A DNA stretch of 64,000 bases from a virus (Duplodnaviria; Caudoviricetes), in the IMG/VR virus record IMGVR_UViG_2775506840_000002, positions 27,928 to 91,927 of that record, one strand, 5' to 3'. Of this stretch, positions 1,388 through 64,000 are shown one piece after another. The stretch's first letter is position 1, and every line of letters starts with the position of its first letter. Under the pieces are notes generated by a model. It did not search any database. It had not been told where the DNA came from and saw nothing but the letters and a program-made list of their open reading frames with translations. The position numbers and the translations under genes are program-made.

Positions 1388-1497
1388 AAAAACTATTTTA
1401 TCTGCTTAAAATTCTTTTATGCTCAAAACTTATATGCAATTGTTGCCTTACACAAGATTTGTTATAATAATTTATACAAATATCGGAAGGGGATTTT

Positions 1498-2385
1498 ATG
1501 AGTCTTACATTAACGGGTTATTCTAAAAGTCATAGATTATGTGAAAGTTATTTTTTTGTTAATGGACATAAATTAGAACATTTTAGAATAGTAAACAAAG
1601 GTTATATCAGTTATTCAGATTTGAATGATTGTGTATTTAACTATAGATTGCGACAATATTCTTTTGAGGAACTAATAGCCAATGATGCTTTTGAACTAGA
1701 AATAGCTGATTGTTATACTAGTATTATGTCCAGTGAAATGTTTTGTATGGAATTAAAAGATAGATTTATTTTTAGGTTATTAGAAACCTTAGAAAATAGT
1801 ATTAACAAAGCAAGGCTTGAAACAATTAATGCTTCAAGTAAATTTAGCATGGATTTTCTAAATAGTGATATATCGTGTCATATGTATGGGTGGTACTATC
1901 GTCAACGCTGTTATCAAGCCATTAATGCTATAAATACATATAACTCTATATTTGACATCCTAATGCAATTAATTTGGATATATGAGTATTCGTCCCCTCA
2001 TTCAAGTTCCTTTACATCTATTTTAAAAGAATATAATCGAAATAAATTTATTGCGAAGTATGAACATAAAACTGACGTTTATAACTTATTCTTCACTAAA
2101 AGATATAAGAGAAGTAAAAAATTCCATGATACGAACTCTGAATATGCAACTATAAGAAACTGGTGTAATACTATTAAACATAGTGGCAATTTAGAATTTG
2201 AGGGAAATAGATTTATGGATAAACCAACATCTAAAGTTATTCTAAATAATGGTGATATACATTCTAGTACAGATGCAGAGTATACTTATTTAGATTTAGA
2301 TCTAGAAGTTATCCCAGAACTTCTAAGCTATCATAAAGCAATTTATGATTTATCTGAAAAAGTTATAGCATATATTTCTAAATAG
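1498..2385 (+). CDS. HEPN-like (Cthe_2314-like) protein, candidate Abi RNase
   Basis: C-terminal RNWCNTIKH motif; own TG-n-TATAAT promoter ~1443-1468 and downstream hairpin 2395-2437. Confidence 0.55.
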   Translation: MSLTLTGYSKSHRLCESYFFVNGHKLEHFRIVNKGYISYSDLNDCVFNYRLRQYSFEELIANDAFELEIADCYTSIMSSEMFCMELKDRFIFRLLETLENSINKARLETINASSKFSMDFLNSDISCHMYGWYYRQRCYQAINAINTYNSIFDILMQLIWIYEYSSPHSSSFTSILKEYNRNKFIAKYEHKTDVYNLFFTKRYKRSKKFHDTNSEYATIRNWCNTIKHSGNLEFEGNRFMDKPTSKVILNNGDIHSSTDAEYTYLDLDLEVIPELLSYHKAIYDLSEKVIAYISK

Positions 2386-2489
2386 CTTCATTCACATAGT
2401 GAGTACTTTATATCTCCAGTATTGAATGCTCACTATGATTCCCTCATTTCCAAAGAACTCACTAGTACCTTCCTTATAAATCTTAAATT

Positions 2490-2888
2490 TTAGACTTTCA
2501 GCAACTCTTTGTGTTCATGAATATTTCCAACCACCTTACCCTTAACACTCCAATAATCTAAATCAGTTCTAAAATATGTGCTTTCTATCCATTTAATAGT
2601 GAATGTTGCATTTTCAAATAAAACATAACATATTGATTCTTCTCCATGCCTACTTGTAAACAATAGTATGTCACCTTCATAGATTTCTTTACCATTCTTA
2701 TCTTTTAAGCCTGTATACTGCATAAGTTCAACATCATCACTAATAATCAACGTAAGTAACTCAAATGTTTCATTCTCAGCATCACTAAACGCAGTCTTTT
2801 TAACCTATTCGCCAAATTTCACTATCCCTTCATGTGGCAATATTTTTTTCTGATTCTTTTCCCACGCTCTAAACTTAATCTCTCTCAT
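2490..2888 (-). pseudogene. YopX-family protein with in-frame TAG at 2805-2807
   Basis: MREIKFRAW N-terminus in frame with MQYTGLKDKNGKEIYEGDI...VVGNIHE. Confidence 0.8.
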
Positions 2889-2944
2889 CTTCATCCTCCT
2901 ACCTTTTTGTTGGCCTTAACAATATGGTAAGGACACGAACGTCC

Positions 2945-3121
2945 CTACCAATCCCTTGTAGATCTCATTTCAAACTCTTCATACATTTCACATTCACACT
3001 TTTCACAATAGCAATCATAGTAATATTCTTCTTCTACTGTTAGCCTTTTACCGCATCTGTCACACCTGCAAACCTCTCTGCCTATAACCTTGTCAATCAA
3101 TTTCAATATCTTGTATTTCAT
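2945..3121 (-). CDS. Small Cys-rich (zinc finger-like) phage protein
   Basis: CxCxxC...CxCxxC; start approximate. Confidence 0.5.
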   Translation of the reverse strand: MKYKILKLIDKVIGREVCRCDRCGKRLTVEEEYYYDCYCEKCECEMYEEFEMRSTRDW

Positions 3122-3338
3122 CTTCATACAAATCATCCCACCCTTGCATTTGTGCATATGCTCTAATAAGTGATTCAAGGTAGAATGTAACCTCTTTTCC
3201 ACTCATATTGCACATGGACATACTTACATGTATCTCCTCTTCATCTTGTTCTGTAGAAACTACCATACCTTTATCAAGTACCTTTTCTGTGCCATCTTTG
3301 TACTTAATAATTACTTGCTCTATATCACTTGATCCCAT
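3093..3338 (-). CDS. Hypothetical phage protein
   Basis: ORF with AAAGGA RBS. Confidence 0.6.
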   Translation of the reverse strand: MGSSDIEQVIIKYKDGTEKVLDKGMVVSTEQDEEEIHVSMSMCNMSGKEVTFYLESLIRAYAQMQGWDDLYEDEIQDIEID

Positions 3339-3457
3339 TTAGTTCTCATCCTTTCAAAAATTATTTTTATCATACTATTTGAATTATTTATTATATTACC
3401 ATATACTTTATCTATCAGCTTTTTAGAGTTGAATTTTAAAAGAAAGGTGGGATAACT

Positions 3458-3766
3458 ATGTCTTCTGATTTAGAAACTTTAGCAAATCAAAATCCTAATG
3501 ATCCTAAATTATTTAATTTGCTAAGTGAAAATGAAAAAGAAATATTACTTAAATGGATTGATGATAATTTCTCTCCTATCCAGTCATTTTTAACTTCAAA
3601 AACTTCATACGGTTTAAAGCAAACTTTTGATAGAACTCATTTTTATGTTTGTAATGGAGTATTTAAAGGCGCAATGCTTGAAGCTGGATATAAAGTAAAA
3701 AATACCGATGATATCAATTGGATATTTAACATTTCTAAAAAATCTCCATACTTTTCGCTTAAATAA
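3458..3766 (+). CDS. Conserved hypothetical phage protein (TSYGLK...NG.FKGAM motif), moron
   Basis: Own promoter and AGAAAGGTGG RBS. Confidence 0.65.
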   Translation: MSSDLETLANQNPNDPKLFNLLSENEKEILLKWIDDNFSPIQSFLTSKTSYGLKQTFDRTHFYVCNGVFKGAMLEAGYKVKNTDDINWIFNISKKSPYFSLK

Positions 3767-3905
3767 TTAAATCCCATTTAATTTAGGCATCATGCTTTAT
3801 ACCCTTTTATCAAGTTAAATGAAACGTATTTTGTAATCATTTAGAACATGATGCCATTTCTTTATTAAGCTGTAGACTAGTAATAAGTTAAATAAAAATT
3901 TACTT

Positions 3906-4073
3906 CTAACTATTGTAATATACAACTCTTTTTCTAGAATCTTCTTTTACCTTTTTGCGATATCTTCTTGCACTACCCTTAACACCTTTTAATTGCCACT
4001 CTGTCAACTCTTTGCCATTGAGTGCCTTATCTACTAGCACTAAAAAGTTTTCTGTTACTGGATACTTTTTCAT
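3906..4073 (-). CDS. Hypothetical 55-aa basic protein
   Basis: Manually translated MKKYPVTENF..., GAGGT RBS. Confidence 0.55.
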   Translation of the reverse strand: MKKYPVTENFLVLVDKALNGKELTEWQLKGVKGSARRYRKKVKEDSRKRVVYYNS

Positions 4074-4084
4074 AATCTGTTACC

Positions 4085-4456
4085 TCACCTCAAGTTATTC
4101 ATTTTTTCCTCTCTCCACTCCGTATACTCTGTTTTCTCTTTCAAATTAAGATTGGCCTTCTCTTCCATTCTCTTTGTGGTTTCTTCCAGTTCTTGAAGTG
4201 TTATAACTCTACTGTTTATACATTCTAAATGTTCTTCCATTCTGTCCTGGTACCTCTGCAATCTTTTGGATCCAAAACCAAACTCATCATGCAAAGTAAT
4301 CATTGAAGCTGCTACTATGGTACGTATTGCTATATTTCCAAAAGCTTCTCTATCACGTTGTACCTTTTCTTGTGCTATTTTATCAGCAACTTCTACTGTC
4401 ATTTTAGCCATGCTTCTGGCATTACCTTTTTGTTGATATGGTTTAAACCTTTTCAT
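4085..4456 (-). CDS. Conserved phage protein (LHDEFGFGSKRL motif)
   Basis: Motif common in Firmicutes phage early genes. Confidence 0.7.
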   Translation of the reverse strand: MKRFKPYQQKGNARSMAKMTVEVADKIAQEKVQRDREAFGNIAIRTIVAASMITLHDEFGFGSKRLQRYQDRMEEHLECINSRVITLQELEETTKRMEEKANLNLKEKTEYTEWREEKMNNLR

Positions 4457-4638
4457 GTGTATTCCCCTTTCTGTATTCCTTTCTTAATAACTCATTCATT
4501 CTTCAGTTACTTTCTAAAAACAATCTCTTATAGCACTGAAATTCCAGCGTTATTTGGTTAGATCTCTCCTTTAACATCAAAAATTACATTTTTTCTTATA
4601 TTTTTTTTGAACAATATATTATAGGGTACTCACCCTAC

Positions 4639-4664
4639 TAGGCCTATTTAGGTCTATTTTTTTT
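4639..4664 (+). terminator. Intrinsic terminator
   Basis: TAGGCCT-attt-AGGTCTA + T run. Confidence 0.6.
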
Positions 4665-4705
4665 GCCTTTTTCTAAAAAGGAAAATATTTTCCTACTCTT
4701 TTTCT

Positions 4706-4743
4706 ATCTTCTTTGTGCCACCGCACAGAGGAGATTTTTTTTT
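4706..4743 (+). terminator. Intrinsic terminator upstream of toxin gene
   Basis: 13-bp stem ATCTTCTTTGTGC/GCACAGAGGAGAT + T run. Confidence 0.7.
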
Positions 4744-4805
4744 GGAATCGCACGTGTAAATGCACCTTTTCCTCAAGTAATGACATTCACAAAGGAGGTC
4801 GTACA

Positions 4806-5069
4806 ATGAATAAACAACGACAAGAAAAAATCAAATATCCAAACAAAGAAATAAAGCAAATAGCGGAAAAACTAGGATTTGTGTTAACCAAATATCGTAC
4901 GTTCAACAATCAACTAATCTTTACCGATGGTAAGAACTTCATCTCACACGATGTTGACCAACATAATGGTGGGTTTTGGAAAATGGCTAAATCTATTAAA
5001 AAGCTAAATTTAAAGAATAGTAGATGTGGAACATTCTCTTGTGATTTGAAAACACGTATAGGTGGTTAG
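4806..5069 (+). CDS. Stand-alone Ntox21 (CdiA-CT ECL-like) ribonuclease toxin
   Basis: HDVDQHNGGFWKMA...RCGTF..DL..RIG motif; AAAGGAGG RBS before ATG 4806. Confidence 0.75.
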   Translation: MNKQRQEKIKYPNKEIKQIAEKLGFVLTKYRTFNNQLIFTDGKNFISHDVDQHNGGFWKMAKSIKKLNLKNSRCGTFSCDLKTRIGG

Positions 5070-5112
5070 ATTATTTATAGGGGAGCAAATCCCCTTTATA
5101 GCAACTAATCTA

Positions 5113-5490
5113 CTACTCTAAAACGTACTTGAATCTTAGCCCTTTACTTTTTATGTATCCATCACGGTTTCTTATTGCATTTCTTATTGTTTTACTGCTT
5201 ATAAAGTTATCTTCTGCTGCAGTTTCTGCATCATCGTACTTATCAATAACCTCTCCTGTTTCGTAATCAATTTGAGCAACCCTATAATTACATAATGGTC
5301 TATTAGGACCATCTGCATATGCAAATCTAAGATGTTTATTATTTAGCTTACCGCTATTCTTTACAATGGCGTTTGTAACATCTACTCTAAATAATCCAAA
5401 CTTCTCAAGAGCCTCTTTCATACTTCCATATGTTTCAACAACTTCTCCAGTTTCAAAATCTAGTTGATTAAGCCTTCTTACCATTGGCAT
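5113..5490 (-). CDS. Tandem NUMOD1-like DNA-binding protein
   Basis: Two QxDxETGEVxxxY repeats; paralog of 55566..55940. Confidence 0.6.
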   Translation of the reverse strand: MPMVRRLNQLDFETGEVVETYGSMKEALEKFGLFRVDVTNAIVKNSGKLNNKHLRFAYADGPNRPLCNYRVAQIDYETGEVIDKYDDAETAAEDNFISSKTIRNAIRNRDGYIKSKGLRFKYVLE

Positions 5491-5543
5491 TTATAAAACC
5501 TCCTTAGTAGCTTTAAAGAAGGTTTTTCAACCTCCTCTTTTGC

Positions 5544-6077: not shown

Positions 6078-6102
6078 TTTTAACCCTCCAGGTATATTAG
6101 TA

Positions 6103-7259: not shown

Positions 7260-7263
7260 AGAA

Positions 7264-8929: not shown

Positions 8930-8935
8930 CCCTTT

Positions 8936-9893: not shown

Positions 9894-9906
9894 TTAGAAC
9901 ACCACC

Positions 9907-15231: not shown

Positions 15232-15684
15232 ATGAAGAAAACTATATCAGAAAGAATAAGAGAAGGTTTAGCAATAAGAGGCATGAAACAAGCTGATTTA
15301 GTTAATAAAACCGGAATTGGTAAATCCTCTATCAGTACTTATATTTCAGGTTCTTATGAACCTAAACAAACTAATATCTATAAAATTGCTAAGGCATTAG
15401 ATGTTAATGAGGCATGGCTTATGGGGCATGATGTTAAAATGGATAGAGATACCTCAGCCCAAGAACTTAATTTAACTGCAGCCGAACAGGAACATCTTAA
15501 GAGATATAGAACACTGGATGAAAAAGGACAACATACGGTAGATACCGTACTATATATGGAGTATAACCGTTGTACCAATGACTATTTAATGCCAATAGCG
15601 GCACATAATGATAATATTAACGATGAACAATTAGAGAAAATAAATAGAGATATAGAAAACATTTTACTTAAGAAAAAAAGATAA
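15232..15684 (+). CDS. CI-like XRE repressor
   Basis: N-terminal HTH, PIAAH motif typical of ImmA-cleaved repressors. Confidence 0.85.
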   Translation: MKKTISERIREGLAIRGMKQADLVNKTGIGKSSISTYISGSYEPKQTNIYKIAKALDVNEAWLMGHDVKMDRDTSAQELNLTAAEQEHLKRYRTLDEKGQHTVDTVLYMEYNRCTNDYLMPIAAHNDNINDEQLEKINRDIENILLKKKR

Positions 15685-15701: not shown

Positions 15702-16226
15702 GTGATTTGCTTGAATGAATATGAAATTTTATTGCACAAAAGTTCTAAAGAAGGACTTGAAGTATTTGAAATGGCTTTGGAATCAGATTCTGATGCATTA
15801 TGTGTTGGTGATACATTAGCCTTAAATACAAGACTATTAAGTACAGTACCCGAAAAAAGATGTACTTTAAGTGAGGAAGTCTGGCATAGCAAAACAACTG
15901 TTGGAAATATAATTGATACTCGTGACATTAATAATCTAAAACAAGAATGTTTTGCACGAAAGTGTTCTTTTGAAGATTTAATTCCGCTTGATAACATTGT
16001 GCAAGCATTACTTAATCACTGCTTAAATTTACAAGATGTATGTGAGTACCTGTGTGTAACAGAAAAGTACTTCTGTGAAGCAATTGCTTACTATAAGCAA
16101 AAATATGGTCCATATTATAGATGTAAAGAATACACATTACATTTTGAACCTTTGTCAGTTATAGGTTCATCAAAAGGAGATGGTTTAAATGACAGCAGCT
16201 CTTTATATTCGAGTAAGTACAGATGA
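15702..16226 (+). CDS. ImmA/IrrE-like antirepressor protease
   Basis: EKRCTLSEEVWH...KQE..AR; located between repressor and integrase. Confidence 0.75.
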   Translation: MICLNEYEILLHKSSKEGLEVFEMALESDSDALCVGDTLALNTRLLSTVPEKRCTLSEEVWHSKTTVGNIIDTRDINNLKQECFARKCSFEDLIPLDNIVQALLNHCLNLQDVCEYLCVTEKYFCEAIAYYKQKYGPYYRCKEYTLHFEPLSVIGSSKGDGLNDSSSLYSSKYR

Positions 16227-17649
16227 TCAGCTAGAGTTCTCTCCTGATGCTCAAAAAAGAGCATTACTTGAATACGCTAAAAAGAATAATATATTAGTAG
16301 ATGAACAATATATTTTTGTTGATGAAGGTATTAGTGGCACAAGTGCTAAGAAAAGACCTGCCTTCCAAACTATGATTGCTACAGCGAAGAAAAAGCCTAA
16401 ACCATTTGATACTATTTTAGTTCATAAATTCGATCGTTTTGCACGTTCTAGGGAAGACTCTGTAGTATATAAAAGTCTTCTTCGTAAAGAATGCGACATA
16501 AAAGTTATATCTATAACAGAACAAATGGAAGATGATAAATTCAGTGTTATTCTAGAGGCTATGCTTGAAGCTATGGCAGAATACTACTCTCTTAACTTAA
16601 GTGATGAGGTTATGAAAGGAATGACTGAAAAAGCACGTAGAGGGTTACCACAGTCAGAAGCACCATATGGATATAGGCGCGATGGAGATAAATATGTTTT
16701 AGTAGATGATGAAGCTGAAATTGTAAAAATGATATTCTCAAAATTTAATAGTGGTGAACTTGGATACGGGGAAATTTGCAGGTTTTTACTTCTAAATGGA
16801 ATTACAAATAGAAAGGGTCAATCATTTACTGTTAGTGGAATAAAATATATGCTAGAAAATCCAATTTATTGTGGTAAAGTTCGCTGGAACTACTCTACTC
16901 ATAAAGGTGGGCGTAGGAAAAATCCCAAAGAAGAATGGATCATAACCGATGGTGAGCATCAACGTATTATTAGCGATGAACTATACCAAAGTGTTCAACA
17001 AAAGATTGCTTCATTAAAAAAGGCTCCTGGACACTATACTCCTAATAAAGAAATTAAGCACTGGTTAAGTGGGCTCTTAAGATGTTCAAATTGCAACAAG
17101 GTATTAGTGTATAATAAAGGTTATCATAAGTACCCCTTTTATAGATGTAACGGATATAATAAAGGCGTATGCACTACCAGCAATATGGGGCCATTACATT
17201 TTTATGAAAAAGAAGTTTTGAAAGCATTATCTCTTAAATTTAATGAGCTTAGCCAAGGACTAGGCAACATAGATTCAGTAGTTGTAAAAACAAATAAAGA
17301 AACATCCAATAAAATTCTTCTTCAAAAACAGTTAGAAAAGGTTAGAAGAAAATATGAAATTGCTAAAAAGGCTTATTTGGCTGAAATTGATACTTTAGAA
17401 GAATATGCAAACAATAAATCAGATATTGAAAAAGAAGAAAGAGATCTATTAGATAAACTTTCTAAAGAAATTAGTTCTGAGGATGTATCAAAAATTATAA
17501 CTTCTAAGTTAGAACATGCCATCCAAATATTAAATGATGATTCAAAAAGTAATACTGAAAAAAATACATTTTTAAAGAGCTTTATAAATAGTATAGATGT
17601 AGATAGAAACAATGATATACTAAAGATAAATATGTACGTAGAGTGCTAA
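16189..17649 (+). CDS. Large serine recombinase (integrase 1)
   Basis: YIRVST, DRFAR, PYGY, CxxC Zn ribbon. Confidence 0.95.
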   Translation: MTAALYIRVSTDDQLEFSPDAQKRALLEYAKKNNILVDEQYIFVDEGISGTSAKKRPAFQTMIATAKKKPKPFDTILVHKFDRFARSREDSVVYKSLLRKECDIKVISITEQMEDDKFSVILEAMLEAMAEYYSLNLSDEVMKGMTEKARRGLPQSEAPYGYRRDGDKYVLVDDEAEIVKMIFSKFNSGELGYGEICRFLLLNGITNRKGQSFTVSGIKYMLENPIYCGKVRWNYSTHKGGRRKNPKEEWIITDGEHQRIISDELYQSVQQKIASLKKAPGHYTPNKEIKHWLSGLLRCSNCNKVLVYNKGYHKYPFYRCNGYNKGVCTTSNMGPLHFYEKEVLKALSLKFNELSQGLGNIDSVVVKTNKETSNKILLQKQLEKVRRKYEIAKKAYLAEIDTLEEYANNKSDIEKEERDLLDKLSKEISSEDVSKIITSKLEHAIQILNDDSKSNTEKNTFLKSFINSIDVDRNNDILKINMYVEC

Positions 17650-18783: not shown

Positions 18784-19889
18784 CTAATAGCATACTTTGC
18801 AAGCCTCGTATCCTTGTTTTTTAGCATCATCAACTGTTAGTTCTCTGCTTGTTGTATTAATATATCTACAAGCTTTATAATGATATTTTTTACCTGTTCC
18901 AGTTACCCAAACCTTTTGGCCTGTTGATTGTATAGTAGTTGACTCTATAATTGTATTAGTAGGATTTGTTGATATCTGTACATTATTTATAGTATTCGAT
19001 ATAGTATCAACTTTAGTTACTATAGGTGTCTGCATCACTTTACCGTCTACTTTTTGTGTAGATATAGTAAGTATTTTCTCATCACTAGTAATAATAATAT
19101 TGCCATTTAAATCAGTTCTATATGTTTTAATGTCTTTAAGTCTGTCGCTTACTTCTTTATGCGGGTGGCCATACTTATTGTCCTTTCCACAAGTAATAAC
19201 AGCTATTTCAGGTTTTACTTTATCCAAAAACTCTTTACTTGTTGAAGTATTACTTCCGTGATGCCCTACTTTAAGTACATCTATATCTATCATTTTATCT
19301 AAGATAGATTTTTCTACATCTTTGCCAGCCAGCATCTCCTGTAAATAAAAATTCATGCTCATCGTTTTTATAAAGCATTATTAAACTTCTATCATTTACA
19401 TCTTTAGATTGACTTTTTGTATTATAAAATTGGAATGTACCATTACCTAAAGTAACTATTTTATCTTCTAATGGTACACTTGGTTTTAAATTTTTATTAG
19501 TAGCAGCTTGAACACAATCTTTATAAGTTTTTGTATCAGCACTACCATTTCCAATTAACACTATGCCAATTTCGAAGTTCTTGATTACTGCATCTAATGC
19601 CCCACAATGGTCTGCATCTGGATGAGTTAATACTATGTAATCTAATTTTTTTACCTCTTGCATCTTAAGGTATTCTACAAGAGACTTTTCATCATCATTT
19701 TCTGCTCCATCTATAAGCATATTTTTACCGTTGTCTTTAATAAGAATTGAATCACTGTTTCCAGTATCAATAAAAATGTACTTCAACCGATTGTATAATT
19801 TGAATTTGCTGGACATTTTTTGCAAATAATGTATTGGTAATTAGTAATAATGACATAATAAATATCAAAAATTTACTAGATCTCTTCAC
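18784..19889 (-). pseudogene. Secreted ComEC/Rec2-like MBL hydrolase with two frameshifts
   Basis: Signal peptide from GTG 19889; THPDADH, TGDA, GHHGS; extra base in run 19772-19776 and 4-bp duplication ~19324-19333. Confidence 0.85.
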
Positions 19890-19995
19890 TTTTATCCCTC
19901 CATTTTCTGCTATACTATTTCACAAAGTAATATATTTAATACTTTTAATCTTAAAATAACATTGTCCATAAATATATATTTTTAGTCATATCGTT

Positions 19996-20805
19996 TTATA
20001 CACTTAATTCTTTTTCTTTCTGATATATTAAATCTAATAATCTATTCTTTATCTCATCTTTATTATGTGCATAATGAGATCTAGCATGACAATTTGCACA
20101 TATTGCCGCTACTGATACTGGGTGATCAGGTCCATTATCGGATAATCTAGTAATATGATGAACTTCTAAATACATATCACCATTTTTTTTTACAAATCCT
20201 CTTTCTCCGCACAATTCACATACTCCCTGTGAGCGCCTCATAGCATACTCCCTAATCGCCTTACTCCTTTTCCTTACATTTATTTTTATTTCCTCACTAG
20301 ACGCTCCCTCAACAGCTTGCTCCATAGCCTTTTTTCTCAATTCTTCTAATGATTGATTTAGATTACTTTCTGCTAAATCATTAAAATCACAGCCTACATC
20401 TATATTATCAATGGGATTTAATTCAAACACTATTGAATTTCTCTCTCTATTGTTTTTATCTATGGCTTGTATTATCTCGTAACCCAGGCACATAAATTCG
20501 CCAATATATTTAACATATGCTGATTTTACATATTGAAACAGAAATATAGATTTATTATTTTTCAAGTGATCTCTTACTGCTTTATTTCCTCTTATAAATT
20601 GCATATGCCCTATCTGGCCTTCTCCTGTATACTTAAAGGTTCCATATTTAGTCCAACTATCTGCATATCCAAATTCATCTCCTGACTCACCTGTAAATAT
20701 AAATATACAAGGAAAGTTTGTAGGTGTACTTATTCCACCTTGTCCTTGACCTCCATATTCCATATGAATATTTTTACGCTTATAAACTTCATTTCTAATA
20801 AACAT
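19996..20805 (-). CDS. SRA-like + HNH endonuclease (putative modification-dependent restriction)
   Basis: GGQGQGGISTP, YTGEGQ.G, GN..V; CxxC..LEVHH..CANCH. Confidence 0.7.
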   Translation of the reverse strand: MFIRNEVYKRKNIHMEYGGQGQGGISTPTNFPCIFIFTGESGDEFGYADSWTKYGTFKYTGEGQIGHMQFIRGNKAVRDHLKNNKSIFLFQYVKSAYVKYIGEFMCLGYEIIQAIDKNNRERNSIVFELNPIDNIDVGCDFNDLAESNLNQSLEELRKKAMEQAVEGASSEEIKINVRKRSKAIREYAMRRSQGVCELCGERGFVKKNGDMYLEVHHITRLSDNGPDHPVSVAAICANCHARSHYAHNKDEIKNRLLDLIYQKEKELSV

Positions 20806-20929
20806 AACCTCTCCCTCCTTTATCTGACTATACTATATCATAAAATTTATTAGTATATTTAACTATTTCCTATAGTATTCCTCTTTACATGAAAAAGCTA
20901 GAACCATAGTCCTAGCTAAAATAATAACT

Positions 20930-23884
20930 CTATTTATACAATATACTTGATTTAGTAACCTTTATGTCTGAATCACAATAATTTAAATATGTTGCTATTT
21001 CTTCTACATTACTTACTTTAGGCCCAAGTATTACTTCTTCTAAATCTATGTCTTTATTAATTTCTATAAATAAATGAGGCACCCTCCATGTAGAAATTTT
21101 ATCTGTTTGCACATTATTACTCCCAAATCTTATAAGTCTTATTTCTTTCTCATATTTATATTGAGCATATTTATACAGAAATCTTACTTGATCTAATATA
21201 TTGCATATTATTTTTCTCATTGTTATATCTCTTACTTTATCTATACCTAAATCATTTAATATAATACAAATTTCTTCAAAGATTTTTTCATCTATATTCA
21301 TAAAATCTTCTTCTATATAACTTACTTTGTATAAACAATTTGTTATTTTATTATTTTCTTTTAGCAAAATATCCTCATCTTCTTTTAAATTCTCTTCTAC
21401 CCTATGATATGTAAGACTGTGTTTTTCCTCATTATCAAAAAAAGTATTCTTAAATAGTAAACAACACCCTTCTCCATTCTCACTATACGTTGTCCACATA
21501 GGTAAATTATCTTCAGACTCTGAAAAACTTGTTATATACGTTTGACTATAGTTATTTAATATTTTTCTTCCATTTTTTGTACTATCTTCATTATACAAAA
21601 TATCTATAATATCTTTTATAGACTTATACTGATTATTATTTTTACATAGTAATTCTTTATCTATATGACTTAATATATTTTTAAAGACTTCGCCCTCCAT
21701 TGGATCATTCATATAGACCGAATTGTTTAACCTTAATCGTGGCTTACTTTGTTTATCTAAGTCATTTACTCCTTTATTAGGTTTAATTAAAAAGTTAATC
21801 GTATTCATCTTAGTATAATGACAAATTTTTGAGTCTTGATTTACTATTTTAATTCTTGATTTTTTCAGTTCACTAACCTTAATAAATAATTTTATAATTT
21901 GTATGTATGTATTCTCATCCTTTAATGTGTTCTTTAGATATTCTAAGAAAGATCTATTGTCTTTCTCTAACATTAACAAATTTAATTGATCCTTAATATA
22001 TTCTTTTGAGTCTATTGGAAACAATTTCATTCTCTCAGTGTAGTAGCCCTTATTATAAGGATTTAATTTAATTGCATTTTCATAATCTGCCAAAGCTTTT
22101 TCTAGATTTTCTAGCCTCCTATATACCTCTGCTCTCTCTTTAAATGCAAGGCTATTTTGGGGATCTAGCTCTATTGCTCTTGTATAATTTTTTAATGCTT
22201 CTTCATTTTCATCCCATAGACCATATATATATCCTCTGCTATAATATGCATTACTGCTATTAGGCTCTAATTCTACTATTTTATCCGCATCTTCTAATGA
22301 TTTTAACTTATCATTTAGTTTATTATATAATATTGCTCTATTACTATAGTATATAGACGTATCAGGTTTTAATTCAATTGCTTTTGTATAATCTGCTAAC
22401 GCTTGTTCTAGTCTCTTGGTTATGCTATATAATATTCCTCTACGATTGTAGTACAATGCATTAGTAGGTTTCAATTCAATTGCTTTTGTATAATCTGCTA
22501 TAGCCTTTTCTTCTTCCTTAAGATCTCTATATAGTACTCCTCTACGGTTGTAGTACAGTGGATTATCAGGTTTCAATTCAATTGCTTTTGTATAATCCTC
22601 TACTGCCTTCTCTTGTTCATTAAGTTCTCTATATAGCAGCCCTCTACTACTGTAGTACTGTGAATTATTAGGTTTCAATTCAATTGCTTTTGTATAATCC
22701 TCTACTGCCTTCTCTTGTTCATTAAGTTCTCTATATAGCAGCCCTCTACTACTGTAGTACTGTGGATTATCAGGTTTCAATTCAATTGCTTTTGTATAAT
22801 CCTCTACTGCCTTCTCTTGTTCATTGAGTTCTCTATATAGCGCCCCTCTAAACTTATAGTACTGTGCATTACCAGGTCTCAATTCAATTATTTTTGTATA
22901 ATCTGCTAATGCCTTCTCTTGTTCATTGAGTTCTTTATATAGGGATCCTCTAAACTTATAGTACAATACATTTTTAGGCTCTAATTCAATTGATTTTGTA
23001 TAATCTGCTAATGCCTTCTCTTGTTCATTGAGTTTTCTATATAGCGCCCCTCTAAGTTTATAGTACAATGCTTTATTAGGATCTAATTCAATTGCTTTTG
23101 TATAATCTGCTAATGCCTTTTCTTCTTCTTGTGACTCTCTATATATCATTCCTCTAACCTTATAATACAATGCATTAGTCGGATCTAATTCAATTGCCTT
23201 TGTATAATCCGCTACTGCCTTCTCTACTTGTGACTCTTTATATATTAATCCTCTATAAGCGTAGTACTGTGCATTAGTCGGATCTAATTCAATTGCTTTT
23301 GTATAATCTGCTAATGCCTTTTCTTCTTGTGACTCTTTATATATTAATCCTCTATAAGCGTAGTACTGTGCATTAGTCGGATCTAATTCAATTGCTTTTG
23401 TATAATCTGCTAATGCCTTTTCTTCTTCTTGTGACTCTTTATATATTAATCCTCTATAAGCGTAGTAGTGTGTATTAGTCGGATCTAATTCAATTGCTTT
23501 TGTATAATCTGCTAATGCCTTTTCTAATTTTTCTTCTTCTTGTGACTCTTTATATAGCATTCCTCTATAAGCGTAGTACTGTGTATTAGTCGGATCTAAT
23601 TCAATTGCTTTTGTATAATCTGCTAATGCCTTTTCTAATTTTTCTTCTTGTGACTCTTTATATAGCATTCCTCTATAAGCGTAGTACTGTGCATTAGTCG
23701 GATCTAATTCAATTGCTTTTGTATAATCTACTAACGCCTTTTCTTCTTCTTCCAACTCTCTATATAGTCTAGCTCTACTATTATATGCGCTGGCATCCTT
23801 TCTATCTAACTCTATTTTTCTTGTATAAATTTCTATCTCTCTCTTAATACTATCAGTAGTTTCTTCCTGCATTTGTGCTTTCAT
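20930..23884 (-). CDS. TPR-repeat protein with C-terminal DUF2971-like domain
   Basis: ~17 TPRs; HYT, MNDPMEG, SFS..DNLPMW..Y, YEKEIR motifs. Confidence 0.8.
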   Translation of the reverse strand: MKAQMQEETTDSIKREIEIYTRKIELDRKDASAYNSRARLYRELEEEEKALVDYTKAIELDPTNAQYYAYRGMLYKESQEEKLEKALADYTKAIELDPTNTQYYAYRGMLYKESQEEEKLEKALADYTKAIELDPTNTHYYAYRGLIYKESQEEEKALADYTKAIELDPTNAQYYAYRGLIYKESQEEKALADYTKAIELDPTNAQYYAYRGLIYKESQVEKAVADYTKAIELDPTNALYYKVRGMIYRESQEEEKALADYTKAIELDPNKALYYKLRGALYRKLNEQEKALADYTKSIELEPKNVLYYKFRGSLYKELNEQEKALADYTKIIELRPGNAQYYKFRGALYRELNEQEKAVEDYTKAIELKPDNPQYYSSRGLLYRELNEQEKAVEDYTKAIELKPNNSQYYSSRGLLYRELNEQEKAVEDYTKAIELKPDNPLYYNRRGVLYRDLKEEEKAIADYTKAIELKPTNALYYNRRGILYSITKRLEQALADYTKAIELKPDTSIYYSNRAILYNKLNDKLKSLEDADKIVELEPNSSNAYYSRGYIYGLWDENEEALKNYTRAIELDPQNSLAFKERAEVYRRLENLEKALADYENAIKLNPYNKGYYTERMKLFPIDSKEYIKDQLNLLMLEKDNRSFLEYLKNTLKDENTYIQIIKLFIKVSELKKSRIKIVNQDSKICHYTKMNTINFLIKPNKGVNDLDKQSKPRLRLNNSVYMNDPMEGEVFKNILSHIDKELLCKNNNQYKSIKDIIDILYNEDSTKNGRKILNNYSQTYITSFSESEDNLPMWTTYSENGEGCCLLFKNTFFDNEEKHSLTYHRVEENLKEDEDILLKENNKITNCLYKVSYIEEDFMNIDEKIFEEICIILNDLGIDKVRDITMRKIICNILDQVRFLYKYAQYKYEKEIRLIRFGSNNVQTDKISTWRVPHLFIEINKDIDLEEVILGPKVSNVEEIATYLNYCDSDIKVTKSSILYK
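22370..23760. repeat. Near-identical ~99-111-bp tandem repeats encoding TPRs
   Basis: Recurrent aattcaattgcttttgtataatc core, ~14 copies. Confidence 0.9.
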
Positions 23885-51487: not shown

Positions 51488-52285
51488 CTACTCTTCAAAC
51501 ATACTGCACTGATTTTCTAGTGGCTTTTCTTTACATTTGCCTATCCACCATTCCATTACATCTTCTCCAGTTTGCCATGTTGTGTTATTATCTAAGTTCT
51601 TAATCATTCTGTTAAATGCTCTTATGTAATTTTCTTTGTACTTAGGATACATCTCTAATTCTTTTTCCTGGTTGCTACTTAAAGGACACCCTATACAACC
51701 TATTCTAGTAAAGCCCTGGTCGTACAGTTCACAGTATGGCTTTTTGTATTTCTTTAGAAATTCCCATACATCTTCATCTGTCCAGTCTATAATAGGTCGT
51801 ACCATTACTTTGCCTTTCCAAAAGCTAACCATACTAAGCTTTTTCCTATTATTGCTTTCTGACCATCTTACGCCAACAAGCACAGTGTCACCTACATTAC
51901 CTACATTTTCTTTTAACTCTTCACAACAATACCTCTGCATCCTTGTAGGTGGTTGTTTTTTACTAGATATCAAATTAAATATAGTTTTAGGCCTACCTTC
52001 CATAGTCCCCTTTACTTGTCTTTTGGTAAATACATTGCATTTTCTTTCTATAACATCCGGATAGTACTTTCTTCTAAACCTAATCAGCTCTGGTGGATCG
52101 GGCGTTGGTGCAACTTCTGCTCTGAATTTAACCCCTGCCATTTCCGCCAAATGATATACTACTTGACTATCCTTACCTCCACTAAAGGCTAATAAGTAAC
52201 CTTCTTGTGGTTCAAATTCTTGCAATCTTTTTATTGCTATATCAACTTTATTTATTTCTCCAAATAATGTATGTTCAACTAACAC
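51488..52285 (-). CDS. PAPS reductase-family protein
   Basis: AFSGGKDS, RYCC..LK, GVRWSES..R, RIGCIGCP. Confidence 0.88.
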   Translation of the reverse strand: MLVEHTLFGEINKVDIAIKRLQEFEPQEGYLLAFSGGKDSQVVYHLAEMAGVKFRAEVAPTPDPPELIRFRRKYYPDVIERKCNVFTKRQVKGTMEGRPKTIFNLISSKKQPPTRMQRYCCEELKENVGNVGDTVLVGVRWSESNNRKKLSMVSFWKGKVMVRPIIDWTDEDVWEFLKKYKKPYCELYDQGFTRIGCIGCPLSSNQEKELEMYPKYKENYIRAFNRMIKNLDNNTTWQTGEDVMEWWIGKCKEKPLENQCSMFEE

Positions 52286-59552: not shown

Positions 59553-59659
59553 GTCATTTATTATGACTTTATAGTACGTCATTTTAAATGACATGTCAAT
59601 AGCTTTTCTAAAAAATGTTTTATTTAATGACATTTATAGATTTAGTCATTAATAATGAC
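59553..59659. promoter_or_regulatory. Operator cluster GTCA-N7-TGAC
   Basis: 59553, 59578, 59617 (partial), 59645, plus 59330. Confidence 0.75.
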
Positions 59660-59710
59660 TATACTTTATATATAAAAACATCAATACTTTATCAGAATTG
59701 GAGGATAAAT

Positions 59711-60136
59711 ATGGAAGTGACTAGTAGTGAGTTTGCCTTAAGACTAAAAGAACTCCGTAAAGAAAATAATATTACACAACTAGAGCTTTCAAAGAAACTA
59801 GGTATAGTACGTACCGCTATTACCAATTATGAAACTGGTAGGACTATGCCAGATCCAATAACATTAAACGCGCTTGCCAAAATATTTAATGTGTCATTAG
59901 ATTATCTTATGGGTGAAACAAATACCCGTAATTATATTGACCTTGATCACATTAAGCCTGCATCTGTTAAGGAAAAAGTTTCTTATGATGAGTTCATGAA
60001 AACAGCAAAAGCTTTCTTTATGGATGCATCTGATGAAGATCGTGAAGCAATCACCAGAGATATTTCAAATTTATACTGGGAAAGTAAACAAATTAATAAG
60101 ACAAAATATGCTCCACGTAAAAAAAAAAATAGTTAA
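59711..60136 (+). CDS. CI/ImmR-like repressor
   Basis: HTH RLKELRKE..ITQ..; GGAGG RBS before 59711. Confidence 0.88.
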   Translation: MEVTSSEFALRLKELRKENNITQLELSKKLGIVRTAITNYETGRTMPDPITLNALAKIFNVSLDYLMGETNTRNYIDLDHIKPASVKEKVSYDEFMKTAKAFFMDASDEDREAITRDISNLYWESKQINKTKYAPRKKKNS

Positions 60137-60204
60137 ATAAAAACTTAAATAAATTTGAAATTTAATAAGTAATAACTATTCTTTTTTTTACTGGAGGAAC
60201 ACAA

Positions 60205-60645
60205 ATGATAAATATTAGAGTAAGGGTTAAAAACTTAGTGCAAAAATATGGGACACGTAGCCCTGAAAAAATTGCTAAAGAATTAAAAATCCATGTAAAA
60301 TACTTGCCTTATGCAACAACAAAAGGTTATTTTATTAAAATATTGCGCAATAAGTTCATTATTGTTAATTCTAATTTAGATGAAACAGCTCAACAAATAG
60401 TACTGGCGCATGAACTTGGGCATGCACTGCTCCACTCTAATAAAACGGACTTTTTGAAATATGAAAAGGGAGTTTTACTAACACAAGATGAAGACCTCTT
60501 TAACTCTAATTGTATGTACGAGAATCAAGCAAATAAATTTGCAGCCGAGTTACTCTTGCATAACGATATGGAATTTGAAGGTTCTTACATAGATGAAACA
60601 ACATATAATATGCTTGTTCGTATAAAAGAAACAAAAATAAGATAA
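60205..60645 (+). CDS. ImmA/IrrE metallopeptidase
   Basis: AHELGH, ENQANKFAAELL. Confidence 0.9.
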   Translation: MINIRVRVKNLVQKYGTRSPEKIAKELKIHVKYLPYATTKGYFIKILRNKFIIVNSNLDETAQQIVLAHELGHALLHSNKTDFLKYEKGVLLTQDEDLFNSNCMYENQANKFAAELLLHNDMEFEGSYIDETTYNMLVRIKETKIR

Positions 60646-60716
60646 TCGTACAAACCCATAGCATAATATTTATTGGCTATGTTATGGCTTATTATTAAAG
60701 TATATTAGGAGTAAAT

Positions 60717-61511
60717 ATGTCATATTTATATATAGATAAAATTATAGATGGTTACCCCCATACTTCTACACAACCTTTAAACTGTGTATTGAATAATAAT
60801 GAACATGTTATTTTTAAATGTTATGATAACCAAGAAGGTGTACTCTCTTTAATAAATGAGTGGGTTTCCTATAAGTTAGCATGTCATTTAAGATTGCCAA
60901 TCCCAAATGCTGGACTTGCTAGGTTAGACTTAAATACAGCTGTTGGTACTCCACCTTATGAAATTTCAAGTGGACTTGGTTTTTATTCAACACGATTAAA
61001 TAATATCTTGAATATGCGTTCTGAGTTAGGTTTACTTTTAAAACAGCATTGTATAAACTTAAGTGATTTCCCAAGAATTCTTTTATTTGATCACTTAATA
61101 TTCAATACTGACCGTAATCCAGGGAATTTATTATATAGTATTGCAGAAAATAAAATCTACATTATTGATCATACGCACGTCTTTCCAAATAGAGTTATCT
61201 GGGATAAATACAAGCTTAAGCAATGTATGGAAGAAAAAGATATTGGGGATACTTCTGTAATGGAATGGAATGAGTTTCTCTATAATATGTTTTTTGGAAT
61301 TATGTCTGTTAAAAATATGAATTTGATTGATGTTGCACATGATTTCCAAACTCTATTAAATAAGGACTTAATTAAAGATATTGTATATTCTATCCCAGAA
61401 GAATGGAAAATTGATTGCGATAGTTTAGATATGCTGATAGAATATATAAGTTATCGATTGGTTCACTTAGAGGATATTTGTAATACTATATTTAAGTATA
61501 AGGAGGTGTAA
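60717..61511 (+). CDS. HipA-like kinase
   Basis: K...NE, FD..I.N.DRNPGNLL, IDH. Confidence 0.8.
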   Translation: MSYLYIDKIIDGYPHTSTQPLNCVLNNNEHVIFKCYDNQEGVLSLINEWVSYKLACHLRLPIPNAGLARLDLNTAVGTPPYEISSGLGFYSTRLNNILNMRSELGLLLKQHCINLSDFPRILLFDHLIFNTDRNPGNLLYSIAENKIYIIDHTHVFPNRVIWDKYKLKQCMEEKDIGDTSVMEWNEFLYNMFFGIMSVKNMNLIDVAHDFQTLLNKDLIKDIVYSIPEEWKIDCDSLDMLIEYISYRLVHLEDICNTIFKYKEV

Positions 61512-61512
61512 T

Positions 61513-62310
61513 ATGATGTGTAAAATTAAATACTCTGCATTAACTTATTATCCATCTTTTTTATTAACTGATAATACTACAATCGGTGTTGCATTCCATA
61601 ACCTATCTACTAATGAGCGTAGATTTGAAATAACTTCTAATATAACTAGAATTGCTAATACATATGATGAATTAAACCCAGATATTTTAAAAATCATATT
61701 GCACAGTATCAAAGAGTCTATTTGCAAAGATTCATCATATTCATTCAATAATACAGAAACATCATTTGATTTATATGACTTCACAAAATTCTATGTCAAC
61801 GAATTTAAATTTACTCCTATTGTTGAAGTTGATGTAGAAAATTTTGATTCATTTATAGATGAAGCCAAAAAGATTTATCTAAGATATGACTACTCAAAAG
61901 AACAACGCCCTTCTGTAGGTGATGAAATCAAATTTTTAAAACATATAATTTCTTCCAAGAAGAATGATTGTTCTTCTAAACCTCTATTTGGTGAATTTAA
62001 TGATCAAATTAATTTTGATTATATTATAAATAATGAATATGCAATAAAAATATTTGATTTTAAGAATAGTACCCAAAAGCAATCTATTTCTACCGCAAGA
62101 AGTTGGGCTTTAGCTGCTCAAGAAGTTACTCCTATGCATAAAGTAGTATTTATCTATAGCCATGATATGGATATACTAAGCGAAAACGCAAAAAGCAAAC
62201 TAAAAACTGCATTAGCTATTTTAAATAAATATAGCTATAAAACATTAGAAATTAGTGAAGGGGCATCTTTTATCTCTTCAATAACTAACAATCAATTGTC
62301 GGTTATTTAA
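61513..62310 (+). CDS. DUF3037-like protein (kinase partner)
   Basis: YSAL.YYP.....T.IGV N-terminus; coupled to the kinase. Confidence 0.6.
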   Translation: MMCKIKYSALTYYPSFLLTDNTTIGVAFHNLSTNERRFEITSNITRIANTYDELNPDILKIILHSIKESICKDSSYSFNNTETSFDLYDFTKFYVNEFKFTPIVEVDVENFDSFIDEAKKIYLRYDYSKEQRPSVGDEIKFLKHIISSKKNDCSSKPLFGEFNDQINFDYIINNEYAIKIFDFKNSTQKQSISTARSWALAAQEVTPMHKVVFIYSHDMDILSENAKSKLKTALAILNKYSYKTLEISEGASFISSITNNQLSVI

Positions 62311-62320: not shown

Positions 62321-62351
62321 AAGCTCCACATAGACACATCTATGTGGAGCT
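62321..62351 (+). terminator. Strong hairpin upstream of integrase
   Basis: AGCTCCACATAGA/TCTATGTGGAGCT. Confidence 0.55.
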
Positions 62352-62377
62352 CATTGTTTATATATAGGAGGCCTACT

Positions 62378-64000
62378 ATGAAAATAGCAATCTACTCCCG
62401 TAAGTCCAAGACTTCTGACAAAGGGGAATCTATAGATAATCAAATACACATGTGTAAGGAGTATGCCAATGCACATTTTGAGACGCCAGAGTTCTCTACA
62501 TTTGTAGATGAAGGTTTCTCAGGTGGCAATACCAATCGTCCTCAATTTAAAATACTTATAGATGAGCTAAAGAAAGGTATGTATGATGTACTTATATGCT
62601 ATCGTCTAGATCGTATTTCTAGAAATGTTTCTGACTTTGCATCTACATTAGACATCTTAACCGAGCATGGCATAGGATTCGTATCTATCAAAGAGAATTT
62701 TGATACAACCACACCTATGGGGCGTGCCATGATTCACATATCTTCTGTATTTGCTCAACTAGAAAGAGAAACCATTGCAGAGCGTGTTACAGATAACCTA
62801 TTAGAGCTTGCAAAGCTGGGCCGTTGGCTAGGCGGTACTTCTCCGTTAGGCTATAAGAGCAAAAAAGTAGCTTATCAATCCAGTGGCAAGACTAAGCATT
62901 ATTCTGTTCTTGAACAAGATCCAGATACTGCTTCTATCGTTAAGCTCATTTTTGACAAGTATTTAGAGCTTGGTAGCATTTCTAAAGTAGAAACCTATCT
63001 TATGCAGTCTAATATCAAAACACCTAACAAAGCCTACTTCCGATCCAATGTTATACGTAATATATTAATCAATCCTGTTTATGTTACTGCTGATACATCA
63101 ATCTATGATTACTTTCATAAACTTGAATGTATTCTACCTAAACCTAAAGAAGAATTTAATGGCTCCTATGGACTCATGCCTTATAACCGTAATAAAAAAG
63201 GACAAGGAAACTTACAAAATCCTCATGATAAATGGATTATCTCCATTGGCACCCATGAGCCTATTATCTCTAGCCTAAATTGGATAGCAGTTCAAAAGCA
63301 ACTTGCTGCAAATAGCGACTTAGCCTATTCTAATGCAAGCACTTCTCCTGCTCTACTTAGCGGATTGATCTACTGTAAACATTGTGGGGCACCTATGCAA
63401 GTTTCCGGTAAAGGTGTTTTGGCAGATGGTACAGTATGCTATAACTATAGATGTACTACCAAGACTAAGAGTAGAGGTACGTTATGCAATATTAATAATA
63501 TAAGTAAAGGCTATGCTCTAGATGCGCTTGTAATCAAACGTATTCGTGCTATGTTAGAAAATGAAACGGACTTAATCAAAGAACTCAAAAAGTCTAAACA
63601 TGATTTAACCTTTAAGGCCGATGCTAATGAAGAAGAAAAAACACGTATCAAAATGGAATTAGATACAAATACGACTACTATTAGTAGCCTTATAAAAAAA
63701 CTTGCTCTATTTGATGATCCGACTATGGAACAATATATACAAGACGAGGTTAAGGCACTGCATAGTAAAAATGCTGCTCTTAAAGAGCAACTTGAAGATC
63801 TTGAAAGTTTGGGTATCAATCAAGACTACTCTCTTGCTAATATTGACCTTATTCTTCAATCTCTTAAAGATTTTAATAAACTGATAGACTATGCAACATT
63901 GCATCAAAAGAAAACGCTTATGCGCAACTTAATTAAGCGTATTGAATGGGATGGTGAAACAGTAGGTATCTTCTTCTACTTCCAACAAAGTCCATTATGA
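62378..64000 (+). CDS. Large serine recombinase (integrase 2)
   Basis: YSRKS, DRISR, FAQLERE, CKHCG Zn ribbon; AGGAGG RBS before 62378. Confidence 0.95.
   Translation: MKIAIYSRKSKTSDKGESIDNQIHMCKEYANAHFETPEFSTFVDEGFSGGNTNRPQFKILIDELKKGMYDVLICYRLDRISRNVSDFASTLDILTEHGIGFVSIKENFDTTTPMGRAMIHISSVFAQLERETIAERVTDNLLELAKLGRWLGGTSPLGYKSKKVAYQSSGKTKHYSVLEQDPDTASIVKLIFDKYLELGSISKVETYLMQSNIKTPNKAYFRSNVIRNILINPVYVTADTSIYDYFHKLECILPKPKEEFNGSYGLMPYNRNKKGQGNLQNPHDKWIISIGTHEPIISSLNWIAVQKQLAANSDLAYSNASTSPALLSGLIYCKHCGAPMQVSGKGVLADGTVCYNYRCTTKTKSRGTLCNINNISKGYALDALVIKRIRAMLENETDLIKELKKSKHDLTFKADANEEEKTRIKMELDTNTTTISSLIKKLALFDDPTMEQYIQDEVKALHSKNAALKEQLEDLESLGINQDYSLANIDLILQSLKDFNKLIDYATLHQKKTLMRNLIKRIEWDGETVGIFFYFQQSPL

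Follow-up and report, generated by a model that had tools for sequence, protein, structure and literature searches.

How might a temperate phage carry a toxin-family RNase gene that has no recognisable immunity gene beside it? The question is raised by a stretch of provirus DNA, the window, which is the right-hand 64 kb of the 91,927-base IMG/VR provirus record IMGVR_UViG_2775506840_000002, and by one gene within it that encodes an 87-residue RNase of the Ntox21 family. According to a review (PMC13460014), genes for antibacterial toxins invariably have cognate immunity genes next to them. Here we found an intact member of a validated ribosomal RNA (rRNA)-cleaving family that is under purifying selection in prophages without recognisable immunity, and whose layout recurs in unrelated phages. 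We tentatively favour, with somewhat less than even confidence, the explanation that the gene encodes an autonomous, normally silent accessory conflict RNase of a temperate Clostridia phage, which would bring about abortive infection, exclusion or growth arrest to the benefit of the prophage. The gene and its ribosome-binding site (RBS) lie as follows, L007 being the closest relative, a locus in the genome of Holtiella tumoricola:

4791-4799, + strand: Shine-Dalgarno sequence AAAGGAGGT, 7 nucleotides (nt) before the ATG and identical in L007
4806..5069, + strand: stand-alone Ntox21 RNase gene of 87 amino acids, with its ATG at 4806 and its stop at 5067-5069

Protein identity and predicted active site

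The initial annotation had assigned the gene to Ntox21 and had pointed to the peptide DVDQHNGGFWK, which is present in the 87-residue product. A hidden Markov model (HMM) search agrees with this assignment: the Pfam Ntox21 profile (PF15526) matches with an E-value of 3e-20 and a score of 72.8 bits (cut-off 25), covering positions 2-70 of the 71 in the profile. Judged by sequence, the match is far beyond chance and the domain is complete. It begins at residue 19 of 87, and the only in-frame upstream extension of the open reading frame (ORF), from a TTG at 4713, crosses the upstream terminator T2 (described below) and has no RBS of its own. The short ORF, the early start of the domain and the terminator in the upstream frame thus bear out the earlier statement that the protein has no secretion or delivery domain. 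No model in PHROGs, NCBIfam or PADLOC matches the protein.

The sole solved relative found by sequence is CdiA-CT of Enterobacter cloacae (4NTQ_A; E = 1.2e-4, residues 161-228 aligned). D49, D51, H53 and K59 of the prophage protein align to D203, D205, H207 and K214 of this structure, which form the CdiA-CT active site in an enzyme that cleaves 16S rRNA between A1493 and G1494, as colicin E3 does, according to the sections of a published account at hand (PMC9086364). All 17 short homologues in an alignment share these four residues as well as W58, R73, G75 and T76, and the catalytic residues are retained in every copy of the phage type, by which we mean a stand-alone gene antisense to phage genes and followed by no immunity ORF. 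Two further Ntox21 motifs, RxG[ST] and a C-terminal RxxD, have been described (Zhang et al. 2012, available in part); the first is present as RxGT, formed by R73, G75 and T76. An AlphaFold (AF2) model built on the alignment of short homologues reached a predicted local distance difference test score (pLDDT) of 88.3 and a predicted template modelling score (pTM) of 0.77. When this model was compared with known structures using Foldseek, the top match was 4ntq_A (E = 1.7e-4, probability 1.00, template modelling (TM) scores of 0.63/0.71 over 76 ordered residues), followed at ranks 2-6 by colicin E3 RNase chains that matched much more weakly (TMq 0.47-0.56, E = 0.3-0.7). The active-site residues are intact, and the alignment and the model together predict a catalytically competent enzyme.

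Immunity genes and recurrence in other phages

To place the gene among its relatives, we used an exhaustive search of representative proteins, which returned 651 clusters at E <= 0.001; most carry Ntox21 as a C-terminal domain in proteins of hundreds to thousands of residues, and about 14 representatives are short (72-102 residues). An ORF was counted as a potential immunity gene if it encoded at least 50 amino acids and started no more than 25 nt before or 200 nt after the toxin stop. Such an ORF follows Ntox21 in 82 of the 85 loci from genomes and viruses, starting within -15 to +33 nt in 78 of them, and the three exceptions are L007 and two loci cut by a contig end. Among metagenome loci the proportion is 33 of 39; two of the remaining six are cut by contig ends, three are phage-type loci (L090, L091 and L092), and the last is L104. 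L104 (toxin ORF 4557..5249) belongs to a near-identical gut Ntox21 group and lacks the 111-residue ORF that its siblings have at +1, which may reflect a disrupted immunity gene or an assembly error.

The genes on either side of the prophage Ntox21 gene both run in the opposite direction:

4085..4456, - strand: 123-residue gene matching phrog_17690, left neighbour of the Ntox21 gene
5113..5490, - strand: gene of the lytic operon for a 125-residue NUMOD1-like small DNA-binding protein, convergent neighbour

No + strand ORF follows the Ntox21 stop; the convergent gene begins 43 nt past it, and the earlier claim that there is no adjacent immunity ORF therefore stands. Nor is there a conserved small ORF within 4457-5112, or one common to the window and L090 cassettes. 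The product of 5113..5490 (PADLOC HEase, E = 6e-4; NUMOD1 clusters of a protein atlas, score 0.94) was ruled out as an immunity candidate, being NUMOD1-like and not common to the other lineages. A 55-residue ORF at 3906..4073 was also rejected; it diverges like the toxin gene, but it sits at the margin of a homologous block, and L007 has no intact equivalent.

We also looked for immunity genes encoded at a distance. All but one (L066) of the 82 downstream ORFs fall into five families of 44, 27, 4, 4 and 2 members, few of which Pfam names (Imm41 for 7 ORFs, DUF3885 for 4 and CdiI_N for 2). When a six-frame translation of the 91.9-kb provirus (1190 frames) was searched with an HMM for each of the five families and with the L066 singleton sequence, no match was found (best E = 0.47), and Barstar and Imm41 were not found there either. 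The same family HMMs found nothing in L007, L090, L091 and L092 (best E = 0.079), whereas two member loci used as positive controls were recovered with E-values of 3e-54 and 8e-40. In the 4.7-Mb genome of the relative, which encodes a single Ntox21, the L007 copy, the two largest families, Barstar and Imm41 were not found. An immunity gene elsewhere in the prophage, which the initial annotation had allowed for, is thus not recognisable in any of the six frames of the provirus.

The arrangement recurs on three phage-like metagenome contigs, each with the Ntox21 ORF alone on the + strand amid - strand phage genes and with no downstream ORF. By BLASTP, the L090 protein (81 residues) is 57% identical to that of the window over 76 residues and the L091 protein (81 residues) is 49% identical over 77 residues; the L092 ORF is cut at its 5' end. 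The - strand neighbours are DnaD-like, DnaC-like and ArpU-like regulator genes in L090, VRR-NUC, sigma-like regulator, HNH and terminase genes in L091, and VRR-NUC and primase-like genes in L092, and Ntox21 is the only protein common to the neighbourhoods of the window record and these three contigs. In a quick tree of 79 columns, six of the seven phage-type rows fell into one group together with one other short protein, at a weak Shimodaira-Hasegawa-like approximate likelihood ratio test (SH-aLRT) value of 82, and L091 fell into a neighbouring group.

Further searches recovered few additional relatives. The window protein had no match by tblastn among INPHARED phages, and in IMG/VR no phage-type relative was found with the window protein, with alignment A1 (only five toxin-plus-immunity loci) or with P0024; with query P0004, one IMG/VR stretch encodes a relative. 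When genomes were scanned with the proteins of L090 and L091, the match tables revealed no additional locus that could be recognised as phage-type. Ntox21 occurs in three of 401 genomes sampled from the order of the relative, none of them a further phage-type example. The stand-alone, antisense, immunity-less arrangement in phages is real but rare.

Control region, selection and prophage setting

The elements around the gene are as follows:

4609..4624, no strand assigned: 16-nt motif GAACAATATATTATAG, just upstream of T1
4639-4664 (4639-4656 in the scan), + strand: terminator T1, a 7-bp stem followed by T8; -7.8 kcal/mol, z -1.7, modest
4706-4743 (4706-4735 in the scan), + strand only: terminator T2, a 13-bp stem with a CACC loop followed by T8; -17.7 kcal/mol, z -5.0
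4755..4783, + strand: promoter-like box pair between T2 and the RBS, TGTAAA (4755-4760), 17 nt, TAATGA (4778-4783)
5079..5095, + strand: weak hairpin past the stop with a poor T tract; -10 kcal/mol, z -1.6; possibly a weak terminator of the cassette

Two + strand terminators just upstream of the gene had been noted before, and both scanning and folding confirm them, T2 as strong and T1 as modest. The scan called three sites in 1.9 kb against 0.7 expected and ranked T2 first in the first 16 kb of the window. Because there is no T tract on the - strand, T1 and T2 would not stop the lytic operon. The pair is preserved in L007, where a T-to-C change in T1 turns a G-U into a G-C pair (-10.5 kcal/mol) and T2 loses its loop-closing pair and still folds (-14.5 kcal/mol). 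L090 also has two + strand terminators upstream of the gene (-12.4 kcal/mol, z -4.3, and -6.2 kcal/mol, z -2.1), and L091 has no stable one (-0.6 kcal/mol). Both L090 and L091 have strong + strand terminators right after the gene (-14.1 and -12.8 kcal/mol, respectively). The gene is thus insulated by terminators in two of the three lineages for which upstream sequence is available.

Aligning the upstream regions revealed the box pair, of the form TGnAnA, 17 nt, TAATrA, at the same spacing in the window and L007, in L090 and in L091. This conservation suggests that the pair may be the Ntox21 gene's own weak promoter, situated downstream of the terminators. Because of that position, T1 and T2 look more like insulators than like an antitermination switch. 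If the box pair is read correctly, the terminators would not be part of the leader and would shield the gene from + strand read-through, for example from 3458..3766. The latter is a 102-residue accessory ORF on the + strand (phrog_9576, E = 4.6e-19) with promoter-like sites upstream; no terminator was called between it and T1. The best sigma-70-like site near the gene (ATGACA, 16 nt, TACAAT; 4780-4807) was set aside as coincidental, since transcription from it would start inside the ORF.

The initial annotation had read the same elements differently, as a lock in which transcripts from a promoter upstream of T1 and T2 reach the gene only when an invading phage provides antitermination, so that control is exerted at the RNA level alone. 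Two tandem + strand terminators do precede the gene in two independent lineages, and no strong promoter lies between T2 and the RBS. The conserved box pair downstream of T2 and the lack of a stable upstream terminator in L091 nevertheless speak against this proposal, and there is no convincing + strand promoter upstream of T1. We identified no nut-like or put-like element, and Rfam yielded nothing relevant: over 3700-5600, at E-values up to 1, the only hit was a chance-level DUF805b match (E = 0.49). The associated idea that ACCTTTT (4764-4770) pairs with the RBS is not supported either, as this pairing is absent from the minimum-energy fold and the leader (4744-4830) folds no better than shuffles (z -0.31). 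Two other candidate partners of the Shine-Dalgarno sequence were rejected: pairing with the 5' arm of T2, the best found (-14.5 kcal/mol), was equalled by 95 of 500 shuffled upstream sequences, and pairing with the 5' arm of the L090 T1 by 88 of 500. We consider an antitermination lock very unlikely.

Upstream of T1, the motif GAACAATATATTATAG recurs without a mismatch in the unrelated phage contig L090, in the corresponding position just before the first terminator. Its exact matches among 128 loci are confined to the window locus and its record (L001), L007/L089 (one locus) and L090, and both the motif and the box pair survive between lineages whose proteins are only 50-60% identical. The reverse complement of the motif contains a perfect TATAAT, so that the motif might act as a - strand promoter of the genes on its left, but no good -35 element accompanies it.

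These upstream features raise another explanation, in which the RNase acts as the toxin in a toxin-antitoxin or addiction module that has gone unrecognised. Its antidote would be either a novel protein encoded in the prophage or the host, or an RNA from the upstream region that ends at T1 or T2, in the manner of a type I or type III-like system. In type III toxin-antitoxin systems a terminator sits between the regulatory RNA and the toxin gene, and the order of elements here matches that layout. In addition, shuffled sequences fold far less stably than the 230 nt upstream of the gene (z -4.65), and GAACAATATATTATAG is kept across lineages whose divergence is saturated. A novel protein antidote would also accord with the statement, in the available part of one paper, that immunity proteins of BECR toxins have little in common (PMC9086364). 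Against such a module, there is no tandem array of the antitoxin type, the two copies of a 10-nt unit being T1 itself; there is no Rfam match and no small ORF shared by the window and L090 cassettes; besides Ntox21, no protein is common to the neighbourhoods of all lineages; and L091 has no structured upstream terminator. We regard a hidden toxin-antitoxin module as unlikely.

Comparison with L007, which represents the same prophage, allowed us to examine selection on the gene. Window positions 3893-11054 align to L007 at 97.4%, and the flanking genes are 94-99% identical in DNA, whereas the Ntox21 coding sequence is only 81.8% identical and its protein 78%. For the Ntox21 gene the synonymous divergence (dS) is 0.73 and the nonsynonymous divergence (dN) 0.12, whereas dS of the flanking genes is 0.01-0.22. 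The resulting dN/dS of 0.17 therefore indicates that the Ntox21 protein is under purifying selection. Because the flanks are so similar and the coding sequence so diverged, the latter looks like an older allele that has replaced its counterpart within a conserved regulatory frame. L007, the single close relative available, retains the cassette.

These values bear on the possibility that the gene is merely a decaying orphan from a polymorphic-toxin locus, unexpressed and functionless. Orphan toxin fragments are common beside polymorphic toxin genes, as with L066 in an RHS locus; moreover, the last family motif is degenerate in this protein (discussed below) and the phage-type family is rare. 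However, the low dN/dS at a dS of 0.73, the intact frame, the catalytic residues kept in all phage-type copies, the strong RBS and a layout conserved in four lineages all speak against decay, which we judge highly improbable.

The position of the gene in its prophage offers further clues. Pfam annotation, which covers 77 ORFs, shows that the record joins two distinct prophages, one after the other; each has a serine recombinase of its own (16189..17649 and 62342..64000+) as well as a repressor region, a terminase and a portal. The right-hand one, at about 24,000-64,000 of the window, is myovirus-like. The Ntox21 gene belongs to the second (left) prophage, which has the following lysogeny genes and promoter-like site:

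15090-15118, - strand (15118-15090): strong promoter-like site
15232..15684, + strand: cI-like helix-turn-helix (HTH) gene
16189..17649, + strand: serine recombinase gene

In the same prophage, the lytic genes are read leftwards from the - strand and encode, in order, Rha, an SMC-like ATPase, RecT, DnaD-like, DnaC-like and RecU-like resolvase proteins; left of the window edge they continue with a sigma-r4-like protein, then terminase and portal. The Ntox21 gene lies in an accessory stretch between the replication genes and the late regulator, co-oriented with the repressor and recombinase and opposed to the lytic operon, so that ORFs and Pfam matches corroborate the earlier remark that it is antisense to the early operon. 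The host of the provirus is a gut-type Clostridia bacterium, and the phage is temperate.

This setting invites comparison with phage developmental RNases such as RegB of T4. An enzyme of that kind would be produced at a set time to cut mRNAs of the host or the phage, or other RNA, and not 16S rRNA, and immunity would be needless. Solo RNases of the BECR fold, namely RegB and PBECR domains, have been described in phages (PMC5512222, available in part), and Ntox50 of Clostridium phage phiC2 provides a precedent (PMC3482391, likewise). In every lineage the gene occupies an accessory region between replication genes and the late regulator and terminase, and the purifying selection on it would fit a developmental role. 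On the other hand, in four lineages it is opposed to all lytic genes, so that lytic transcription runs antisense through it, and its active-site residues are those of a 16S-cleaving enzyme. The Ntox21 toxin of Gram-positive ABP systems is, moreover, tabulated as a validated 16S rRNase in the review cited above (PMC13460014, in the part at hand). A developmental RNase therefore seems unlikely to us.

Several other features of the record are worth describing. A 295-residue ORF at 1498..2385 (+ strand) lies 2.4 kb upstream of the Ntox21 gene on the same strand; its product belongs to no family in Pfam, PHROGs, NCBIfam or PADLOC. A weak atlas lead to HEPN_Cthe2314 clusters (feature score 0.92) and a structural match (TM 0.54/0.77) to a cluster with HEPN_Cthe2314 in 12% of its members suggest that it may be a second RNase-type accessory gene. 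It forms part of a swap-prone slot, 1402..3892 in the window against 2980..5111 in L007, with flanks that are 97% identical. The window cargo of about 2.5 kb comprises this ORF, YopX, two small ORFs and the phrog_9576 ORF, and the L007 cargo of about 2.1 kb comprises membrane proteins and a 153-residue methyltransferase-like ORF. Between the two prophages, 18784..23884 (- strand) encodes three proteins: one of 984 residues in which numerous TPR repeats are combined with a C-terminal DUF2971, an HNH protein, and one with a metallo-beta-lactamase fold. Their genes may be cargo or may belong to the host. The right-hand prophage has a lysogeny module (59615..62310, + strand) in which the stretch from the repressor to the recombinase encodes an HTH repressor, an M78 peptidase of the ImmA/IrrE type, a HipA_2-like kinase (E = 2.2e-18) and a 265-residue ORF, and the early region of this prophage includes a gene (51488..52285, - strand) for a phosphoadenosine phosphosulfate (PAPS)-reductase-domain protein (E = 5e-25), near SSB and an actin-like ALP_N protein.

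Proposed role and comparison with known systems

In the explanation we favour, that of a normally silent conflict RNase, the upstream + strand terminators, weak promoter-like box pair, strong RBS, ORF and downstream hairpin would make up a single cassette, and the Ntox21 endoribonuclease would act inside the cell that makes it and not be secreted. Homology with CdiA-CT and colicin E3 predicts that its target is 16S rRNA, which it would cleave in the decoding centre, thereby halting translation. The gene would be silent by default in the lysogen, where the terminators would block + strand read-through, and during lytic growth - strand transcription antisense through it would add further suppression. 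When expressed under some trigger, the enzyme would arrest translation of its own cell, leading to abortive infection, exclusion or growth arrest. We infer the RNA target, the promoter, the silence, the trigger and the biological role. A suicide or abortive-infection role, as proposed in the initial annotation, is plausible; Ntox21-related domains are named among the effector domains of the Menshen antiphage system in the part of a paper at hand (PMC12065111).

Several observations weigh against this explanation. The protein is a bare nuclease of 87 residues without a sensor domain to trigger or restrain it, and cutting 16S rRNA would stop the phage's own translation too. At the position of the C-terminal RxxD motif it reads R84-I-G-G87, with the Asp replaced. 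We do not take this ending as inactivating because the same RIGG ending is found in L096, a toxin of 707 residues with an immunity ORF, and the sequence at this position appears to vary among presumably functional Ntox21 members. The box pair is weak relative to the sigma-70 consensus (three of six positions per hexamer), was not called by the promoter scan and was defined post hoc from the alignment, and L091, with no stable upstream terminator, shows that the upstream lock is not universal. The whole-genome immunity search of the relative covered four families only, and, given the diversity of immunity proteins, an unrecognised immunity factor, protein or RNA, could be encoded in the prophage or the host chromosome. 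Finally, the phage-type form is rare, with five loci in four lineages across the collections scanned.

A more specific version of the conflict RNase explanation can be put forward. A domesticated 16S-rRNA-cutting domain would serve as an antidote-free, single-gene suicide effector in a small Clostridia phage lineage, held silent purely by transcriptional architecture (insulating terminators, a weak promoter and antisense lytic transcription) and firing only when that architecture is disturbed, for example by superinfection. We regard this version as rather doubtful. Were it correct, it would be an exception to the rule that an immunity gene invariably accompanies toxins of this type. Should the protein prove active, regulation alone would be enough for a lethal enzyme that shuts down translation to be carried safely, and a very small, easily testable effector would be added to the conflict genes borne by phages. 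If it is instead harmless to the host, this would point to a new kind of hidden immunity or to a change of substrate within the Ntox21 family.

Solo phage RNases of the BECR type are already known as a kind, and the stand-alone phage Ntox21 would be the new part. A full-text search of the literature naming Ntox21, which gave parts of the papers, turned up no mention of a stand-alone phage form, and neither did searches on BECR, prophage and stand-alone forms or on 16S cleavage and abortive infection.

The gene does not fit the established classes of toxin locus. It is not a polymorphic toxin system (contact-dependent inhibition (CDI), RHS, LXG and similar), as it has neither a delivery domain nor a downstream immunity gene, and it is not a type II toxin-antitoxin system, as it has no neighbouring ORF on the same strand and is flanked by terminators and convergent genes. 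Type III systems of the ToxIN type share with it an endoribonuclease and a terminator after an upstream non-coding region; they have an antitoxin repeat array and a toxin of another family, whereas this upstream region has no tandem antitoxin RNA repeats, only units of 8-12 nt present in 1.9-2.7 copies, among them the T1 stem itself. Short Ntox21-only ORFs (56-137 residues) also occur as orphan toxin-immunity modules, for example L031, L035, L043, L064, L072 and L073. Those lie in toxin loci with an immunity ORF at -7 to +8 nt, whereas genes of the phage type are followed by no ORF of this sort and are antisense within phage operons.

T4 RegB, PBECR and phiC2 Ntox50 fall in the same broad class of nucleases; they too are encoded by phages, stand alone and lack an immunity partner, but they belong to other families and lie within, or are fused to, lytic or virion genes. 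The C-terminal BECR domains of Menshen NsnC are Ntox21-related RNase domains that act as intracellular antiphage effectors, according to the portion of the paper cited above (PMC12065111); they are fused into a multi-gene system with sensor parts, whereas the prophage Ntox21 is bare. Phage morons are autonomous accessory transcription units that have a promoter and terminator of their own, are opposed to or independent of the operons around them and vary in presence among related phages. Of these traits, opposite orientation and flanking terminators are seen here, the box pair would supply the promoter, and the cassette is kept in one close relative. The colicin E3 RNase domain, the paradigm of 16S cleavage at the decoding centre (PMC9086364, part at hand), matches the protein in fold, with a distant sequence relation; colicin E3 adds receptor and translocation domains and an obligatory immunity protein, Im3. 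CdiA-CT of E. cloacae ATCC 13047 (4NTQ chain A) is the C-terminal tip of the huge secreted CdiA and is followed by cdiI, whereas the prophage domain stands alone, with neither entry or delivery parts nor an immunity gene. The two share family, fold and four active-site residues, and the 87-residue protein spans the whole ordered CdiA-CT nuclease domain, 76 residues in the crystal.

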